A stretch of DNA of 64,000 bases, from assembly GCF_053078305.1 (NCBI RefSeq), contig NZ_CP166879.1; one strand, 5' to 3'. A model generated the notes under the pieces. The model did no database searches. It saw only the letters and a program-made list of their open reading frames with translations, and was not told where the DNA came from. This document shows positions 13,618 through 22,850 of this stretch, piece after piece (the first letter of the stretch is position 1; every line of letters begins with the position of its first letter). The translations under genes and the position numbers were made by a program.

Positions 13618-13646
13618 AGCCCGCCGGTTCAGGCGGGCTTTTTTGT
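13618..13646 (+). terminator. Rho-independent terminator after lom
   Basis: CAGCCCGCC-GGTTCA-GGCGGGC hairpin followed by TTTTTTG. Confidence 0.7.
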
Positions 13647-13655
13647 GGGGTGAAT

Positions 13656-16600
13656 ATGGCAGTAAAGATTTCAGGTGTACTGAAAGACGGCACAGGAAAA
13701 CCGGTACAGAACTGCACAATCCAGCTGAAAGCAAAACGTAACAGCACCACGGTGGTGGTGAACACGCTGGCCTCAGAAAATCCGGATGAAGCCGGGCGTT
13801 ACAGCATGGACGTTGAGTACGGTCAGTACAGCGTTATTCTGTTGGTGGAAGGATTCCCGCCGTCACATGCCGGGACCATCACCGTGTATGAAGATTCTCA
13901 ACCCGGTACGCTGAATGATTTTCTCGGTGCCATGACGGAGGATGATGCCCGTCCGGAGGCACTGCGCCGTTTTGAACTGATGGTGGAAGAGGTGGCGCGT
14001 AACGCGTCCGTAGTGGCACAGAACACGGCAGCCGCGAAGAAGTCAGCCGGCGATGCCAGCACATCTGCCCGTGAGGCGGCAACCCATGCGACTGATGCTG
14101 CAGATTCAGCACGTGCAGCCAGCACGTCAGCCGGACAGGCCGCTTCGTCGGCTCAGTCAGCGTCTTCCAGCGCAGGAACGGCATCAACAAAGGCCACTGA
14201 AGCCTCAAAAAGTGCTGCCGCTGCAGAGTCCTCAAAAAGCGTGGCAGCTACCAGTGCCGGTGCGGCGAAAACGTCAGAAACGAATGCCGCAGCGTCAGAA
14301 CAATCAGCCGCCACTTCTGCATCCACCGCGACCACGAAAGCGTCAGAAGCTGCCACCTCAGCCCGGGATGCGGCGGCCTCAAAAGAGGCAGCGAAATCAT
14401 CAGAAACGAACGCATCCTTGAGCGCCAGTAGCGCAGCTTCCTCGGCAACGGCGGCAGGAAATTCCGCGAAGGCGGCAAAAACGTCCGAGACGAACGCCAG
14501 GTCTTCTGAGACGGCAGCGGGACAGAGCGCCTCAGCTGCGGCAGGCTCAAAAACAGCGGCTGCGTCGTCTGCCAGTGCCGCGTCAACAAGTGCCGGGCAG
14601 GCCTCAGCCAGTGCCACCGCCGCCGGAAAATCGGCAGAAAGCGCCGCATCATCCGCTTCAACAGCCACAACGAAGGCTGGCGAAGCCACTGAGCAGGCCA
14701 CGGCAGCAGCGAGGTCAGCTTCCGCAGCGAAGACATCCGAAACGAACGCGAAAGCGTCGGAAACCCGTGCAGAATCCTCAAAAACGGCAGCGGCATCGTC
14801 CGCCAGTTCGGCGGCGTCATCGGCATCATCGGCGTCTGCTTCAAAAGATGAGGCGACCAGACAGGCGTCAGCAGCGAAGGGCAGCGCCACGACGGCATCC
14901 ACGAAGGCGACAGAGGCTGCTGGTAGTGCGAAGGCAGCAGCTCAGAGCAAAAGTACGGCGGAATCTGCAGCAACGCGCGCTGAGACAGCGGCAAAACGGG
15001 CAGAGGATATTGCATCCGCCGTGGCACTTGAGGATGCGAGCACGACGAAAAAGGGGATAGTACAGCTCAGTAGTGCGACTAACAGCACTTCCGAGTCACT
15101 GGCGGCAACACCAAAAGCCGTTAAGGCCGCGTATGACCTGGCTAACGGGAAATACACCGCACAGGATGCAACGACAGCACAGAAAGGGATAATCCAGCTA
15201 AGCAGCGCGACCAACAGCACGTCTGAAACGCTGGCGGCAACGCCAAAGGCAGTAAAAGCAGCCAATGACAATGCTGAGAAACGTCTGCAGAAAGATCAGA
15301 ACGGTGCGGATATCCCTGGCAAAGACACCTTTACGAAAAATATTGGTGCCTGCCGTGCCTTCGGTGGGTCAGTAAGCACAACAACAGGAAACTGGACGAC
15401 TGCACAGTTTATCGAGTGGCTGGATTCTCAGGGAGCATTTAACCATCCATACTGGATGTGCAAGGGTTCCTGGTCTTATGGCAATAATAAAATCATTACT
15501 GATACTGGCTGCGGTAATATTCATCTCGCCGGAGCTGTCATTGAAGTAATGGGGATAAAGTCAGCGATGACGATCCGCATTACCACTCCGACCACATCCA
15601 GCGGTGGCGGAACAACCAACGCCCAGTTTACCTATATTAATCACGGAACAGATTATTCACCTGGCTGGCGAAGGGACTATAACTCCAGAAATAAGCCAAC
15701 GGCATCAGAGATCGGGGCGCTACCGTCAGGTGGAACAGCAGTATCATCAGTTAATCTGGCTTCAAAAGGTCGGGTAGCCGCGCTGACAGACAATACGCAG
15801 GGGGCAGCAGGTCTTGAGTTATACGAGGTGTATAACAACGGATATCCAACAACGTATGGAAATATCATTCACCTGAAAGGGATGACAGCCGTTGGCGAAG
15901 GTGAGTTACTCATCGGCTGGAGTGGTACAAGCGGTGCTCATGCTCCGGCATTTATTCGTTCACGACGGGATACGACCGACGCAAACTGGTCGCCGTGGGC
16001 GCAGCTTTACACCTCGGCTCATCCTCCTGCAGAGTTTTATCCAGTCGGTGCACCAATCCCGTGGCCATCAGATACCGTTCCGTCTGGTTATGCCCTGATG
16101 CAGGGGCAGACTTTTGACAAATCTGCATACCCGAAACTTGCAGCCGCTTATCCGTCAGGCGTGATCCCTGATATGCGTGGCTGGACGATTAAGGGCAAAC
16201 CTGCCAGTGGTCGGGCCGTATTGTCTCAGGAACAGGACGGCATTAAATCGCACACCCACAGCGCCAGCGCATCCAGTACGGATTTGGGGACGAAAACCAC
16301 ATCGTCGTTTGATTACGGCACTAAATCCACGAATAACATCGGGGCGCATACGCACAGTGTGAGCGGTACAGCCGCAAGTGCCGGAAACCATACTCATAGT
16401 GTCACAGGCGCATCAGCAGTCAGCCAGTGGTCACAAAATGGGTCAGTACATAAGGTAGTGTCTGCGGCCAGTGTGAATACAAGTGCTGCAGGAGCGCACA
16501 CTCATAGTGTCAGCGGCACAGCTGCATCTGCAGGTGCTCACGCACATACTGTCGGTATTGGTGCTCATACGCACTCGGTTGCGATTGGCTCACATGGACA

Positions 16601-16682
16601 CACCATCACCGTTAACGCTGCTGGTAACGCGGAAAACACCGTCAAAAACATCGCATTTAACTATATTGTGAGGCTTGCATAA
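13656..16682 (+). CDS. stf: Side tail fiber protein Stf, apparently intact, with Ala/Ser-rich repetitive shaft and His-rich C-terminal repeats
   Basis: ~1008-aa ORF; N-terminus [49 protein letters not shown]... and C-terminus ...[31 protein letters not shown] match K-12 StfR/lambda Stf family as recalled. Confidence 0.85.
14050..15010 (+). repeat. Low-complexity Ala/Ser/Thr-rich tandem repeats inside stf coding sequence
   Basis: Repeated motifs such as [19 protein letters not shown]; the run also generates long spurious ORFs on both strands (14153..14902 -, 14248..15027 -, 14575..15060 +). Confidence 0.7.
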
Positions 16683-17266
16683 TGGCATTCAGAATGAGTG
16701 AACAACCACGGACCATAAAAATTTATAATCTGCTGTCCGGAACTAATGAATTTATTGGTGAAGGTGATGCATATATTCCGCCTCATACAGGTCTGCCAGC
16801 AAACAGTACCGATATTGCACCGCCAGATATTCCGGCTGGTTTCGTGGCTGTTTTCAACAGTGATGAGTCATCGTGGCATCTCGTTGAAGATCATCGGGGT
16901 AAAACGGTTTATGACGTGGCTTCCGGCGACGCGTTATTTATTTCTGAACTCGGCTCATTACCGGAAAATGTCACCTGGTTATCCCCGGAAGGGGAGTTTC
17001 AGAAGTGGAACGGCACAGCCTGGGTGAAGGATACGGAAGCAGAAAAACTGTTCCGGATCCGGGAGGCGGAAGAAACAAAAAACAGCCTGATGCAGGTAGC
17101 CAGTGAGCATATAGCGCCGCTTCAGGATGCTGTGGATCTGGAGATCGCAACGGAGAAAGAAACCTTGTTGCTGGAAGCCTGGAAAAAGTATCGGGTGTTG
17201 CTGAACCGTGTTGATACATCAACTGCACCTGATATTGAGTGGCCTACGAACCCTGTCAGGGAGTAA
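16682..17266 (+). CDS. tfa: Tail fiber assembly protein Tfa
   Basis: 194-aa product [54 protein letters not shown]... matches the TfaR/Tfa family; start overlaps the stf stop. Confidence 0.88.
17101..17228 (+). repeat. Direct repeat copy 1 (tfa 3' end), roughly 85% identical to 18150..18277
   Basis: Sequences beginning CAGTGAGCATATAGCGCCGCTTCAGGATGCTGTGGATCTGGAGATCGCAACGGAG and CAGTGAGTATATTGCGCCACTGCAGGATGCTGTAGATCTGGAAATCGCAACGGAG align; identity is an eyeball estimate. Confidence 0.75.
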
Positions 17267-17320
17267 TCATTGGGATTATGCCGCAGCACGTCTTAAGCAA
17301 GAACGTGCTGCGGTTGGATG

Positions 17321-17989
17321 CTATTTTTTCCCTGAAGCGGAAAACATTACTACAGTACCTTGAACCTTGGTTTTAACATTCTCGAAATGCTCTGAGAGTA
17401 TATGTGTTAAGCCTTCTTCGGAATCTTTTGTGTTTGAAAAGATGCCTTTCTGATTGTAAATGCGCATCAGTTTTTGACCGAAGCTATTGTGCACAACTCC
17501 ATCGCCAAGAATTGTGGCTCCGTATAGAGTTCCATCGTCAGTTAAGGCCTGCGCCGCATTGCGTATTACACAGCTTTTTGTAGATATATTTCCAGGCAGG
17601 CAGTGAAGAAGGTAAAACATGGAAATGGAATCAAATTGACCATGTAACGCCGCGGGATAAGGTTCAAAAACATCATGGTTAATTTTATGTTTAATTTTTG
17701 ATTCCCCAGCCCTTGTAGATGCCGCGTTCAGGCTAGCTTCGTTCAAATCCATTAAAGATATCAGACTACTCTCAGGTACGTGAGTAAGGTAAAACCCAGT
17801 TCCAACACCAATATCCAGATGGTTGTTACCTAAATGTTCCAGAAAGTGTGGAAGAAGGTGTTCCTTTGTAGGACATCCCCATGCAAGCCGATTTGATACT
17901 CCCAAAACCCACCAGTCATAAAGCTTTAGGGTAAGTGGTGTGTAAATTTTAGCCCCATCATCTGTGTTTTTTTTCATTAATTTCACCAT
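17321..17989 (-). CDS. Class I SAM-dependent methyltransferase-like protein (resembles DLP12 ybcY family), prophage cargo
   Basis: 222-aa ORF with glycine-rich motif I (LDIGVGTGFY) typical of Rossmann-fold methyltransferases; AT-rich codon usage; lies between the two tfa-derived repeats. Confidence 0.65.
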   Translation of the reverse strand: MVKLMKKNTDDGAKIYTPLTLKLYDWWVLGVSNRLAWGCPTKEHLLPHFLEHLGNNHLDIGVGTGFYLTHVPESSLISLMDLNEASLNAASTRAGESKIKHKINHDVFEPYPAALHGQFDSISMFYLLHCLPGNISTKSCVIRNAAQALTDDGTLYGATILGDGVVHNSFGQKLMRIYNQKGIFSNTKDSEEGLTHILSEHFENVKTKVQGTVVMFSASGKK

Positions 17990-18149
17990 GTTATAGTTTT
18001 ATTTGTGAATTAAATCAATTATGGCGATGAATTACAAGGGGTTAAATGCTGCCGCAGCATAGCGATATTGAAATAGCATGGTATGCTTCGATACAGCAGG
18101 AGCCGAATGGCTGGAAGACCGTCACCACACAGTTCTACATCCAGGAATT

Positions 18150-18277
18150 CAGTGAGTATATTGCGCCACTGCAGGATGCTGTAGATCTGGAAATCGCAAC
18201 GGAGGAAGAAAGATCGTTGCTGGAGGCATGGAATAAATATCGGGTATTGTTGAATCGAGTTGATACATCAGTAGCTC
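18150..18277 (+). repeat. Direct repeat copy 2 (tfa 3' end remnant)
   Basis: See copy 1 at 17101..17228. Confidence 0.75.
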
Positions 18278-18351
18278 TGGGTATGAAGCTGTTTGTAACT
18301 CATGTTACAGTAACAGCCATTACTATCTCGAAGGTGCAAAATGTATATTGA
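18150..18351 (+). pseudogene. Tail fiber assembly gene remnant (tfaX-like 3' fragment)
   Basis: Translation ...[40 protein letters not shown] duplicates the Tfa C-terminus; no homologous N-terminal part. Confidence 0.6.
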
Positions 18352-18534
18352 TTTGATATTTTATAAATTTACTTCGAATCTGGCACGTCAACTTTTGATT
18401 AAAGTAATATCAGTTTTCGGCGAAAAAAGGACCGTGTACATGAGACGATTTCATACAAGAATAACAAAAATATGAATATGCTCCCAATGCAATATATGTT
18501 TTGCATTGGGAACAAATAGCGGAATATTTTGAAA

Positions 18535-20019
18535 TTATTGTATTTCTGCTTCAGAATTTCCTGGGCAGTATATATTTTCTGGTTTTTGTGGAGTGATCAG
18601 GTGATGTACAACTGCTTTATCTACACATAAATTAACTCCGGTGAGAGCTAATGTATGCCCATCACCATTTATTGTTAGTAACGGGCTGGAAAATTTCTCT
18701 GCCATCTTACGGGCATTAATCCAGGGCGTTGTTGGGTCGTATTTGTGTGCTACAAACAGTAAACCAGAGGGCAGAACAGTATTTTTCAGGCGAGTTTTGT
18801 TCAGGTCGCTATGTATTGGCCATAATTCACAAAAATCAGGTGAATCGGAACGTCCATTGTCAAAGTTAATAGCCGGGAAGGCATTCGCAAGAGCGTCTTT
18901 TCGGGATTTTCGCTCTTCTGGTGTTAATTGCTCATCCCCCTGATCTACACAGAGGATTACCCCCGAAGCATCGCTTGACTCTTCTGAGGCTATCGGAGCA
19001 CTGAGCGCAGTTTCAATTTCATTACTGACAATCCCCTGAGAGAACTGGCGTATGGCAGTTGCAAGGGTTGGCCATGATGAACGCCATAGCAGAAGGTCTG
19101 TTGTTAATGATATGAGTTCATCTGAAGATATATTTTCTCCCTTACTGTCTAATAAAGGTTTGTGATGTAATTTTGATAATAGCTCATGGAACTGAGTTAT
19201 TGCCTTATCTCTGTCTGAAGAAAGCGGGCAACTTTTTGTACGCGCACACCAGGATGCAAAGCGATCAAACGTTTCCTGATAACTCTGTGCCTGTTTGAGT
19301 TGCCATGTGAAGTTGTCCTCCAGGTCATCGATATCGACGACTCCATCAAGAACGATAGATCTTACGTTGTAGGGAAAACGTTCTGCATATAAGGCTGCAA
19401 TTTGAGTTCCATACGAATACGCCACGGCTGTCAGTTGTTTATCCCCCAAGGCTTGCCTAATACGATCAATATCGTATACAGCCTCGTTAGAGCCGATATG
19501 GCGAATGACTTCGGCTCCGGTATTATGGATACAGGCATTAATTTTATTTAATACTTGTTGCTTTTCGGTTATGTTTTCCTGAGTCTCTGTATCTGATTGC
19601 CGGCAGTTTATTGTCGGAGTGGACTGTCCGACGCCTCGAGGATCAAATCCAATAATATCCCATGACTCACGAAGATTTGTGACTGGCCAGTCAAAGTTAA
19701 TATAAGGATTTATGCCTGGTAACCCGGGACCACCACTTATTATCAGGATACTTCCTTTATGCTTGCTTTTTGCCGGCAATTTTGTCAACGCTAGTTTGAC
19801 TTGTGATTTTTTTTCATAAGAAGCATCTCCGCCTGTGTCTGTATATTTTAATGGAACAGACAAATAACCACATAGTAAGTCAGGAGACGGTTTTTCCTCA
19901 CCAAACCAGTGGTTGAATTGACTGGCCATACAGGATTGCCACTGTATCTGCTGGGCAGATACGGTTACTGGTAGAAGTAACGTTAAAACAACTTTGAAAT
20001 GAGTAATTATTTTTCGCAT
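18535..20019 (-). CDS. Secreted alpha/beta-hydrolase fold protein, likely S33-type (tripeptidyl aminopeptidase-like) peptidase/esterase; function unknown
   Basis: 494-aa ORF with N-terminal signal peptide MRKIITHFKVVLTLLLPVTVSAQQ, GFDPRGVGQS oxyanion-region motif and SYGT nucleophile-elbow-like motif; AT-rich. Confidence 0.65.
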   Translation of the reverse strand: MRKIITHFKVVLTLLLPVTVSAQQIQWQSCMASQFNHWFGEEKPSPDLLCGYLSVPLKYTDTGGDASYEKKSQVKLALTKLPAKSKHKGSILIISGGPGLPGINPYINFDWPVTNLRESWDIIGFDPRGVGQSTPTINCRQSDTETQENITEKQQVLNKINACIHNTGAEVIRHIGSNEAVYDIDRIRQALGDKQLTAVAYSYGTQIAALYAERFPYNVRSIVLDGVVDIDDLEDNFTWQLKQAQSYQETFDRFASWCARTKSCPLSSDRDKAITQFHELLSKLHHKPLLDSKGENISSDELISLTTDLLLWRSSWPTLATAIRQFSQGIVSNEIETALSAPIASEESSDASGVILCVDQGDEQLTPEERKSRKDALANAFPAINFDNGRSDSPDFCELWPIHSDLNKTRLKNTVLPSGLLFVAHKYDPTTPWINARKMAEKFSSPLLTINGDGHTLALTGVNLCVDKAVVHHLITPQKPENIYCPGNSEAEIQ

Positions 20020-20205
20020 TGTGTCTCTGAATATCGGAATAAAGATAAGATTTGAATATATTGAGGTCTTGTGTTGCGGTAAGAGATTACACGTTATGAC
20101 ATAGGTTAAATGCTTACAAAATTAGTGGATATTGCCTACTTGTAACTGTAAACAAATTCCCCGGGGTTATACAATACCACCGGGGAGAAAATCTGGTTAA
20201 CTTCG

Positions 20206-21159
20206 TTAAAAGGTGTACTTAAGACCAGCAGTAGTGATGAAGTTATAGTTTTCTATGCCTGCACCATTTTTGCTGTAGTCTGAAGTGTTATCATTGTGAT
20301 CATAAAGTGAAGTATTACCTTTTTTATTCGTAACCCGATTCCATGCGCCTTCAACATAAACCTTTGCGTTAGGTGTTACGTAATAACCTGCATTGACTGC
20401 AACAGAATAGTAATTTTGGTCTTTGACTTTACTGCGATAAGTGATTCTTTTTCCTGGGTCATAGTGCTCATCGTTATCAGATGCTTCCACCCAGCCGCTG
20501 TATTTAAATGTGCCACCTAGCTCAAAATCTTCATAACGATAACTTCCAGTCAAGCCAATGTAGGGCATTTTAAAACGTTGTTTGTAGCCGATTGCTCTTT
20601 CTCCATTCGGGAAGGAGCCGATATCATCTCTGAATCCCTCCTCAGAACTGTAGATATAGGAACCACCTCTGGCTGTAAAGCTATAACGGCTTTCCTGATA
20701 TCCGGCCATGAGTCCCAGGCGGTAATTGGGTTCGTTGAGGAGCCAGCCTTTGATATTCAGATCAAATTCGTTGGCATAATTGAGTTGTGTATCAGGGTGC
20801 CTACTTTCATCTGTCCAGGTTCCGGGGTTACTGGAATCCATCCAGTCCTGATCGACCATATTGCCACCTCGGCTGCCGAGAGTAGTCCAGCCCGCAGCCC
20901 CAATAGATATCTGGGGCATCAAATCCCAATTAATTGCACCTTTAATAATTGCAGCGTTATTGAATTTCCAGTCGAGTTGACTGACTTTTCGGCCTCCTTC
21001 TTCAGCTAGATAAACGCGCTCTTTTGTTTTTCCGCTCAGAGTTCCAAGACTAATGTCCGCATTTATGTTGTCAGGAGTAAACGATATAGTCTCGGTAGAA
21101 GCAAAAGAGCTGATCGCAATAGGGGTTGTCAGAACTATTCCCAGAAGTTTCGCCCGCAT
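20206..21159 (-). CDS. ompT: Omptin-family outer-membrane aspartyl protease, near-identical to OmpT
   Basis: 317-aa product MRAKLLGIVLTTPIAISSFASTETISFTPDNINADISLGTLSGKTKERVYLAEEGGRKVSQLDWKFNNAAIIKG... ending ...NFITTAGLKYTF, matching E. coli OmpT as recalled. Confidence 0.9.
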   Translation of the reverse strand: MRAKLLGIVLTTPIAISSFASTETISFTPDNINADISLGTLSGKTKERVYLAEEGGRKVSQLDWKFNNAAIIKGAINWDLMPQISIGAAGWTTLGSRGGNMVDQDWMDSSNPGTWTDESRHPDTQLNYANEFDLNIKGWLLNEPNYRLGLMAGYQESRYSFTARGGSYIYSSEEGFRDDIGSFPNGERAIGYKQRFKMPYIGLTGSYRYEDFELGGTFKYSGWVEASDNDEHYDPGKRITYRSKVKDQNYYSVAVNAGYYVTPNAKVYVEGAWNRVTNKKGNTSLYDHNDNTSDYSKNGAGIENYNFITTAGLKYTF

Positions 21160-21531
21160 AAAAGTTCTCCATTCAATCGTTTTAATGATTGAATATGTAT
21201 TTTTTATATCTAACTTAATGAGTCAATCACATATTGCTCCACTGTTTATATTTTGTTTAGTATTGAATGATTATCACAATGCGCTATCTGTTTTTGGTTT
21301 AATTATCTGTTATTGTTTTATGTTGCGGTTTTACTGTGTGGTTTTTTATGCTTTTGTGGTGTTTTTATCTATTTAAGCGCCATGCCTTTAAAGGCATATA
21401 AGCGAAAATAGCATGAGGTTTATCCTCAATTGCTATGTTTTTTAGTACAAAAAAGAGGGACAAAACTGAGACACACATAGCTTTGTACTGGATTGCAAGG
21501 CTTTGTGCTCTTCGATAGTGGTTAAGGCGGA

Positions 21532-22689
21532 TTACTCCACCTTCCCATCAAGCCAGTCCGCCCACCATTGCATCATTTCTCTGCGCTTATCGAGATACTG
21601 AGCATGGTTGTAAATTCCACGTACAGATCCGCCGTTGGCATGTGCCAGTTGCACTTCAATGGCGTCGGCAGGCCATTCGTGCTCGTTCATAATCGTGCTG
21701 AATTCATGCCTGAATCCGTGACCGCTTTCCAGACCTTCATAGCCGATTTGTTTGATCACAAGTAGCACCGCGTTCTCGCAGATTGGCTTCTTCTTATCGT
21801 TGCGCCCGGAAAAAACAAACTCTGATACTGGTTTAGTGATTGAGCTTAGTGTAGTGAGAAGTTCAACCACCTGGTCTGACATCGGGACAACATGAATTTT
21901 GCGTCCCTTCATCACATTGGCGTCGATGGTGATAATCCTGTTTTCAAAATCGACGTTCTTCCATAGCATGGAACGAAGCTCTTTTGTTCTGAGGGCTGTG
22001 TAGCGTAAAACTTTGGTCGCAATGAGCGATACGATGCTTCCTGAAAATGTTGCCAGTGCTTTGTTAAATGCCGGGATCTGGTCTGCAGGAAGAAACGGGA
22101 AGTTTTTCTTGCGGTATCCCTTCATGGCGTCAGCAAGGTCAGGTGCCGGGTTATATTTAGCCCTACCAGTGACAATAGCGTAACGGAAAACCTCGCCGCA
22201 TCTTCTGCGGGCTTTGTTGGCTCGCTCCATTGCACCGCGATCTTCAAATCTGCGGATTACTTCCAGCAGTTGCATCGGCTCAATATCCTGAATTTCAAGG
22301 CCGCCGATGATAGGTAAAATGTCGTCATCAAACATTTTTGCAAGTTCAGTTGCATAGCCTACTGACCAGACTTGCTTCTTGTGCTCGTACCATTCCTTGT
22401 AAATCGCACTAAAGGAATTGTTGTTAGACGAAGCCTTTTTCGCTTTTACCGGATCGATGCCAACCGAGATGTCTTTCCTCGCGGTCCATGCTTTATCTCT
22501 TGCCTCCTGCAAAGTCATAAGCGGATATTTTCCTACGGTCAGGATTTTCTCCTTACCGTCAATCTTGTAGCGAAGCTGCCATACCTTTTTCCCTGACACA
22601 GGGACATAAAGGTACAGGCCATTACCATCGAGTAGGCGGTATGGTTTTTCTTTCGGCTTTGCTGCTTCAATCTGCTTAACGGTGAGCAT
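21532..22689 (-). CDS. intS: Prophage tyrosine integrase (IntS/P4-like family)
   Basis: Product MLTVKQIEAAKPKEKPYRLLDGNGLYLYVPVSGKKVWQLRYKIDGKEK... with C-terminal catalytic region (..HGFRHEF..., ..RGIYNHAQY..); adjacent to tRNA; start chosen at the MLTVKQ Met (ORF track extends to 22725). Confidence 0.88.
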   Translation of the reverse strand: MLTVKQIEAAKPKEKPYRLLDGNGLYLYVPVSGKKVWQLRYKIDGKEKILTVGKYPLMTLQEARDKAWTARKDISVGIDPVKAKKASSNNNSFSAIYKEWYEHKKQVWSVGYATELAKMFDDDILPIIGGLEIQDIEPMQLLEVIRRFEDRGAMERANKARRRCGEVFRYAIVTGRAKYNPAPDLADAMKGYRKKNFPFLPADQIPAFNKALATFSGSIVSLIATKVLRYTALRTKELRSMLWKNVDFENRIITIDANVMKGRKIHVVPMSDQVVELLTTLSSITKPVSEFVFSGRNDKKKPICENAVLLVIKQIGYEGLESGHGFRHEFSTIMNEHEWPADAIEVQLAHANGGSVRGIYNHAQYLDKRREMMQWWADWLDGKVE

Positions 22690-22850
22690 GGGTAAAAATC
22701 CGGTGGGTAAAATTATTTTATCCACTTTTTACCCGTCATGGAGTGCGGCTGTCAACGATCTGAAGCGAACCATGACGAACTGTGAATCTACGGAAGGCTT
22801 GATATTCAGGGGATTTTGCGGACTGGTACGGATGGAGGCGAACTGATAAA

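Follow-up and report, generated by a model that had tools for sequence, protein, structure and literature searches.

Our analysis of a 64,000-nucleotide stretch of an Escherichia coli chromosome (hereafter the window) finds an intact ompT gene in prophage cargo, next to an IntS-type integrase gene at the tRNA gene argW. We consider it about 90% probable that this element is a mosaic of three known parts, namely a lambda-type phage body, the ompT cargo of DLP12-type prophages, and the IntS/TorI integration module of KplE1 type at argW. In such a mosaic, an argU-type attP-int-xis module would have been replaced by an IntS-attP-TorI module of the KplE1/HK620/Sf6 type, with the join falling inside a short terminator-like hairpin that both module types have downstream of int. 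Because the IntS module has its attP upstream of int, integration would keep intS beside the cargo and argW and send torI to the far end of the prophage, and ompT would thereby take the slot that is held by oac in Sf6 and by gtrABS in the CPS-53 element of K-12. We infer both the direction and the mechanism of this exchange, as we do any benefit to the host.

The gene that gives the locus its interest, and the region upstream of it, are the following.

20206-21159, minus strand: ompT, an intact ORF of 317 aa including a 20-aa signal peptide, encoding an omptin outer-membrane protease
21160-21458, minus strand: upstream region of ompT, 299 bp, which travels with the gene and holds a promoter-like site and the 5' UTR

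Residues 28-317 of the encoded protein match profile positions 1-283 of 283 of the Pfam Omptin family (PF01278; E 2.8e-130), and the crystallised E. coli OmpT (1i78) matches it at E 1e-200, the mismatches consisting only of three natural ones and the engineered mutations of the crystal protein. Relative to K-12 OmpT (NC_000913), 314 of 317 residues are shared, with the changes I25L, A226S and D290N, and the first 24 residues are those of K-12 pro-OmpT; at the nucleotide level, 21 of 954 positions differ from K-12 ompT, and the gene is DNA-identical to that of CEA224S, a strain with a complete genome to which we return below. The catalytic pairs of the 1i78 structure, Asp83/Asp85 and Asp210/His212 in mature numbering, are kept, and so are all five LPS-binding residues (Tyr134, Glu136, Arg138, Arg175 and Lys226). 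Public assemblies contain precisely this protein very often, and in each of the ten places sampled it is encoded at the usual nfrA-ybcH-envY locus. OmpP, carried on the F plasmid, and ArlC/OmpTp, carried on plasmids and islands, share the family and the fold and also occur on mobile elements. However, OmpP and ArlC are just 70% and 74% identical to OmpT (PMC10088187), and since the window protein is 99% identical to K-12 OmpT, it is OmpT proper and an OmpP/ArlC-like paralogue is ruled out. The earlier note on this DNA, made from the sequence alone, had recognized a near residue-for-residue OmpT and proposed its comparison with OmpT, OmpP and ArlC; the count against K-12 bears out the former, and the comparison sides with OmpT (99% to K-12 OmpT, as against the 70% and 74% of OmpP and ArlC to OmpT).

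The upstream region is identical in CEA224S and nearly so in S88 and K-12, and contains a sigma-70-like promoter (TTGACT-16-AAAAAT, 21226-21199; consensus match only). As both the protein and this region match known ompT, the lysogen would be expected to express the gene from the retained ompT promoter, and the gene product probably acts as in K-12, as an LPS-dependent outer-membrane protease that cleaves at paired basic residues and degrades cationic peptides. A role for the prophage OmpT in relation to antimicrobial peptides is similarly plausible.

ompT shares its place between the tail-fibre genes and int with other cargo.

17321-17989, minus strand: cargo gene 1, a class I SAM-dependent methyltransferase (Pfam Methyltransf_12), the intact counterpart, in the same position, of the K-12 pseudogene ybcY
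18046-18351, plus strand: tail-fibre-assembly fragment (Pfam Caudo_TAP, profile positions 75-121 only), the counterpart of K-12 tfaX
18535-20019, minus strand: cargo gene 2, a TAP-like alpha/beta hydrolase of 494 aa (Abhydrolase_1, E 3e-33; Abhydrolase_4, E 9e-16)

PGAP annotates the methyltransferase gene as such in relatives, and the tail-fibre-assembly fragment is a partial pseudogene in their annotation; this tfaX-like fragment marks an older recombination scar within the cargo. The hydrolase begins with a hydrophobic leader that, by eye, resembles a signal peptide. An alpha/beta hydrolase accompanies ompT in most of the genomes and phages examined, and K-12 has appY there. As is typical of lambdoid cargo ("moron") genes, the block lies between tail-fibre genes and int, its GC content deviates from that of the late genes (40.8% vs. 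56.4%), and it holds a promoter-like site (consensus match only). The block from the methyltransferase to ompT plus 345 bp upstream (17300-21504) has counterparts of about 99.6% identity in many E. coli genomes, where it occupies the customary ompT locus (S88, for example), and of 99.2-99.5% in the phage records ev243, 2G7b, Turner, PhiR49_1, PhiR26_1, PhiR30_1 and PhiR29_1/2; in ev243, the ompT cargo block is followed by an argU-type int and lambda-like early-left genes. The proposal of the earlier note that omptins are mobile on lambdoid phages thus holds, but it was already known from the ompT of DLP12, from deposited phages and from PHROGs, which includes an OmpT family. On the argU side, S88 carries two tandem ompT copies (extract 11907-16233) that differ at 15-16 nt, with a tfa fragment and the remnant of an integrase truncated at its 5' end between them, as if a full prophage had inserted beside an older ompT-bearing remnant.

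The ompT gene of K-12 has been described as lying inside DLP12 (PMC5723341), in the order tfaD, ybcY, tfaX, appY, ompT, with the end of the prophage 423 bp upstream of ompT. The order and orientation of the cargo are the same in DLP12 and in phages ev243, 2G7b, Turner and PhiR49_1, and the DNA is 99.2-99.6% identical, although in DLP12 the methyltransferase ybcY is a pseudogene and appY stands in the position of the hydrolase, whereas the window has both an intact methyltransferase and the hydrolase. In a relative, DLP12-type genes run through the whole prophage (nohD, ybcV/W, bor, rzpD, rrrD, essD, a porin, quuD and rusA), and the lysis and Q region of the CEA224S prophage is of DLP12 type. 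The integration functions are different. In DLP12-type elements the integrase is of argU type, attP separates int from ompT, and ompT thus comes to lie at attR of the prophage, beside envY-ybcH-nfrA, whereas the integrase in the window is IntS, the site is argW, and the argU-type att core is missing. The contrast with DLP12 that the earlier note had drawn is therefore correct for the integration module and not for the cargo, which is the DLP12 block itself.

At the chromosomal end, the integration module consists of the following features.

21532-22689, minus strand: intS, an intact 385-aa tyrosine integrase of KplE1/CPS-53 type (the mechanical ORF reaches a GTG at 22725)
22851-22865: attL core, CTGCAGGGGACACCA, the 3' terminal 15 nt of argW
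22851-22925, minus strand: argW, tRNA-Arg(CCT), identified by ARAGORN and the sole tRNA in the window

The intS gene adjoins argW and is transcribed away from the tRNA, with ompT 372 bp downstream. The catalytic, central and arm-binding domains of the integrase are all found (Pfam Phage_integrase, Phage_int_M and Arm-DNA-bind_3), and the protein shares 382 of 385 residues (99.2%) with K-12 IntS, as compared with 17.8% identity to the argU-type IntD and to the Int of ev243. An IntS-type integrase at argW next to ompT, outside the DLP12/argU context, is what had been claimed for this locus, and both parts are borne out by the tRNA-Arg(CCT) and IntS assignments and by the position of ompT away from the argU/envY/nfrA locus and the absence of an argU-type att core. 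Beyond argW, the chromosome continues with yfdC, mlaA, yfdF, fadL, fadI and fadJ in the same order as in K-12; its best match among 5,426 complete E. coli genomes is 98.4%, to the O55:H7/O157:H7 group, and the core genes of the window are 97.2-97.6% identical to those of K-12. Two places in this flank stand apart. The first is yfdF (25375-26406), which is AT-rich (34% GC), has no Pfam match and has diverged unusually far, the comparison with CEA224S giving 57 differences over 500 bp (25250-25750). The other is the yfc fimbrial operon (33540-39304), with identities to K-12 of 82% (33540-37791) and 67% (38845-39304) between neighbours at about 97%; its usher ORF (34368-37019) is intact in the window, and the K-12 yfcU is a pseudogene.

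A conserved argW recombination module composed of attL, attR, IntS and TorI is common to KplE1, HK620, Sf6, CUS-3 and HK633 (PMC3509656). The likeness of the window to KplE1 (CPS-53) extends over the 99.2% identical IntS, the argW site, the core CTGCAGGGGACACCA and a hairpin downstream of int, and the torI gene that KplE1-type elements have at the opposite prophage end is seen in the relative CEA224S, torI being present also in C41. In the annotation of Sf6 and HK620, the attP core is upstream of int, on the side of the torI homologue and before it, and in Sf6 oac comes directly downstream of int; in the window, intS abuts argW with the cargo on the same side, from which it follows that its attP lay between the RDF gene and int. 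What differs is the cargo downstream of int, which is gtrABS (yfdGHI) in K-12 CPS-53, oac in Sf6, and ompT with the hydrolase and the methyltransferase in the window, and also the body of the phage, which is lambda-type with a long tail in the window and not P22-type.

The prophage continues past the left edge of the window, which takes in its right-hand 22.8 kb; torI, attR and the immunity and lysis genes would lie beyond that edge. The phage genes in this part are the following.

133-13591, plus strand: lambda-type late genes (PHROGs matches, E 1e-67 to 0), which include the next eight features
133-1185, plus strand: major head protein
1999-2577, plus strand: tail completion protein
2947-3717, plus strand: major tail protein
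4564-7124, plus strand: tape measure, split by a 1-base deletion near 5211
7450-8148, plus strand: minor tail protein L
8154-8897, plus strand: minor tail protein K
9527-12925, plus strand: J
12992-13591, plus strand: Lom
13650-16682, plus strand: side tail fibre, stf (PHROG tail fibre, E 1.6e-241)
16682-17266, plus strand: tail fibre assembly, tfa (Pfam Caudo_TAP, E 1.3e-44), the last late gene before the cargo

This late region is collinear with the annotated prophage of CEA224S at 96.6% identity. The tape-measure gene lacks one G in comparison with the 853-aa gene of CEA224S and is thereby split into ORFs of 229 aa and 636 aa, which is either a real inactivating mutation or a sequencing error; if the deletion is real, the prophage in the window would be tail-defective and no longer mobile.

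The point at which the two modules meet can be placed closely.

21459-21508, minus strand: module junction, with a shared element of about 45 nt at 21459-21504

Homology to the ompT module stops at 21504, and homology to the K-12 CPS-53 sequence downstream of intS begins at 21459; as the two overlap, the element between these positions is present in both module types. In CPS-53, HK633 and HK620 it is situated downstream of intS; in DLP12 and ev243 it separates ompT from the att site.

Extract L009, 37695-37790: another copy of the element
Extract L004, 22925-23020: another copy of the element

Both K-12 versions of the element fold into a strong hairpin (z -2.1 and -3.4), which is weakened in the window (z -0.35). 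The HK620 record annotates the position-equivalent element directly after int as the terminator of the prophage excision transcript. The hairpin occupies the position of lambda sib/tI, and its stems differ between the intS-type and the argU-type modules. In an alignment of the regions upstream of ompT, a duplicate of the argU 3' end (the att core) lies about 380-420 bp from the gene in K-12, in ev243 and in the two S88 copies; in the window and in CEA224S, this core is absent from the alignment and the intS stop codon is found there instead, with IntS-type sequence beginning about 25 nt past the shared element. The positions of these breakpoints are what lead us to place the exchange in the shared element, so that recombination inside a short hairpin may have joined the modules, and the element may be a recurrent point of module exchange.

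The same arrangement is present in other genomes. Requiring full coverage of a junction probe of 1.3 kb, we found the ompT-intS junction, with its gene order unchanged, in 16 of 5,426 complete E. coli genomes; ompT itself is present in 3,094 of them (57%), so that the junction occurs in 0.3% of complete genomes and in 0.5% of those with ompT. Eleven of the 16 carriers have a single match to the probe, so that the ompT at argW is their sole copy, and the other 5 have a second matching place. The exact 66-nt junction has no match in IMG/VR or among GTDB species representatives, and neither the phage collection nor IMG/VR contains an isolated phage with both ompT and IntS. That no deposited phage pairs the two weighs somewhat against transmission of the recombinant in virions. 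The searchable literature yielded nothing specific on ompT at argW or on ompT as the cargo of a live phage.

The complete genome of CEA224S shows what the whole element looks like. Its prophage extends over about 48.4 kb from argW to the torI-attR end, and the ompT at argW is its only copy. From argW, the order is intS, ompT, hydrolase, methyltransferase, tfa, stf, lom, J, tail genes, head genes and nohD, followed by lysis genes, Q, replication genes, cI/cro, N, exo/bet/gam and torI. The 15-nt core CTGCAGGGGACACCA forms the 3' end of argW, and a second copy stands 74 bp past torI. Beyond attR come the csc genes, dsdA and emrY, and both flanks are the normal argW neighbourhood. The argU locus of the same genome consists of fimZ, argU, a 5'-truncated envY, ybcH and nfrA, and holds no prophage. 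The truncation of envY lies just 46 bp from argU (extract 28121-28794) and suggests the imprecise loss of a former DLP12-type element. Two other ways of bringing ompT and intS together were considered and rejected on this genome. A large inversion or translocation between argU and argW prophages is excluded because the prophage has the usual argW genes on either side and nothing is inserted at argU; a tandem of an intS islet and a separate ompT prophage does not agree with a full prophage that has one integrase, and torI and attR at its far end.

Several other carriers also hold full-length argW prophages with torI and matching att cores; 2014C-3307 is another carrier whose copy is intact. In C41, a remnant consists of intS, ompT, half of the hydrolase, an IS3 and the end from exo to torI (extract 5407-7320), and in O112ab:H8 and GDAR2-2 the head and tail genes are gone beside IS3/IS110 (extracts 1741-4048). 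These IS3/IS110-associated deletions in three carriers have left intS and ompT intact in each.

When the window is compared with nine carriers, the parts of the locus differ in how closely they agree. Over the 4,160 bp of cargo there are 2-10 differences (99.76-99.95% identity). For intS the identity is 95.9-97.7%, and for the 7 kb of chromosome past argW it is 96.3-96.7%, a divergence of about 3.4%. The window's lineage of E. coli, to judge from its sequence, is a different one from all 16 carriers. Near-identical cargo in hosts whose flanks diverge by about 3.4% argues for recent horizontal spread, and as intS differs by 2-4% beside this cargo, the history of the element includes more than one recombination event. 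The intS gene is itself a mosaic (21500-22249). Of the 27 positions at which it departs from the CEA224S allele, 26 fall within the 3' 700 bp, while its 5' 440 bp and the adjoining cargo are nearly identical to CEA224S; such clustering shows further recombination with other IntS alleles.

These data also bear on other explanations of the locus. A misassembly, in which an ompT segment from the argU/DLP12 locus was wrongly joined to intS and argW through repeated prophage sequence, was named by the earlier note as the finding that would overturn its reading. Such an error is conceivable in that prophage repeats can mislead short-read assemblers and the tail-fibre and cargo sequences are indeed repeated in E. 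coli genomes (median 2, up to 7 places each), but the same junction and gene order in 16 independent complete genomes counter it, CEA224S has an empty argU and an argW prophage bounded by proper att cores, and the shared element of about 45 nt is too short for a collapse of this kind, with unique flanking sequence on either side. We regard an artefact as having next to no probability. The view that ompT is just carried along, silent or decaying and functionless in its host, we consider very improbable, though slightly less so. Prophage cargo is often inactive, the ybcY methyltransferase of K-12 is already a pseudogene, and the hairpin at the junction is weakened in the window; against this, the ORF is intact and encodes a very common OmpT allele with a complete set of catalytic and LPS-binding residues, the 299 bp upstream are preserved with the promoter-like site and the 5' UTR, and ompT has been kept in remnants stripped of almost everything else.

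A more substantial alternative, which we still consider unlikely, is that a CPS-53-like remnant resident at argW recombined in situ with DNA of a DLP12-type prophage in the same cell, possibly repeatedly, and was then inherited vertically as a fixed island. The intS of the window, which is 2.3-4.2% from the alleles of other carriers beside cargo that is 99.76-99.95% identical, and the crowding of 26 out of 27 CEA224S differences into the 700 bp at its 3' end, next to the cargo, could be explained in this way. Several carriers are also clearly immobile, IS3-deleted remnants, the tape-measure gene in the window is frameshifted, and no free phage with ompT and IntS has been deposited. However, CEA224S and several others are full-length, with every lambda-type module, a single IntS, torI, att cores and normal flanks, and the near identity of the cargo despite the chromosomal divergence argues for recent horizontal spread. 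The two explanations are partly compatible, as a recombinant may first arise within a cell and afterwards be passed on by phage particles. We favor the mosaic of lambda-type body, DLP12-type cargo and KplE1-type module, as a prophage integrated at argW.

The combination is rare, yet it is what lambdoid mosaicism predicts, and the gene, the type of phage and the integration module are all known. Because these parts are well known and the swapping of modules is the normal course of lambdoid phage evolution, the significance of the finding is modest. Tentatively, and at odds that we would put clearly below even, ompT could be a circulating phage gene that is delivered via interchangeable argU and IntS modules and re-supplies lineages that lack it or are blocked at argU, with the hairpin of the int terminator as a hotspot of exchange. 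This is compatible with the presence of ompT in 57% of genomes, the near identity of the cargo, the 11 of 16 carriers with no other ompT and the empty argU site in the genome examined. Conversion genes that modify the surface, gtr and oac and now ompT, seem to share the slot immediately downstream of IntS as a general site. For genome annotation, synteny or typing calls that expect ompT by envY/nfrA would mislabel about 0.5% of ompT-positive genomes. It has been left open in the literature whether the absence of ompT from EIEC and Shigella reflects its loss or a prophage that was never present (PMC5723341), and an argW route to OmpT bears on this question. ompT is an accessory gene that phages bring, as cargo, to more than one site in the chromosome, and a lineage with no DLP12-type element can still gain OmpT.
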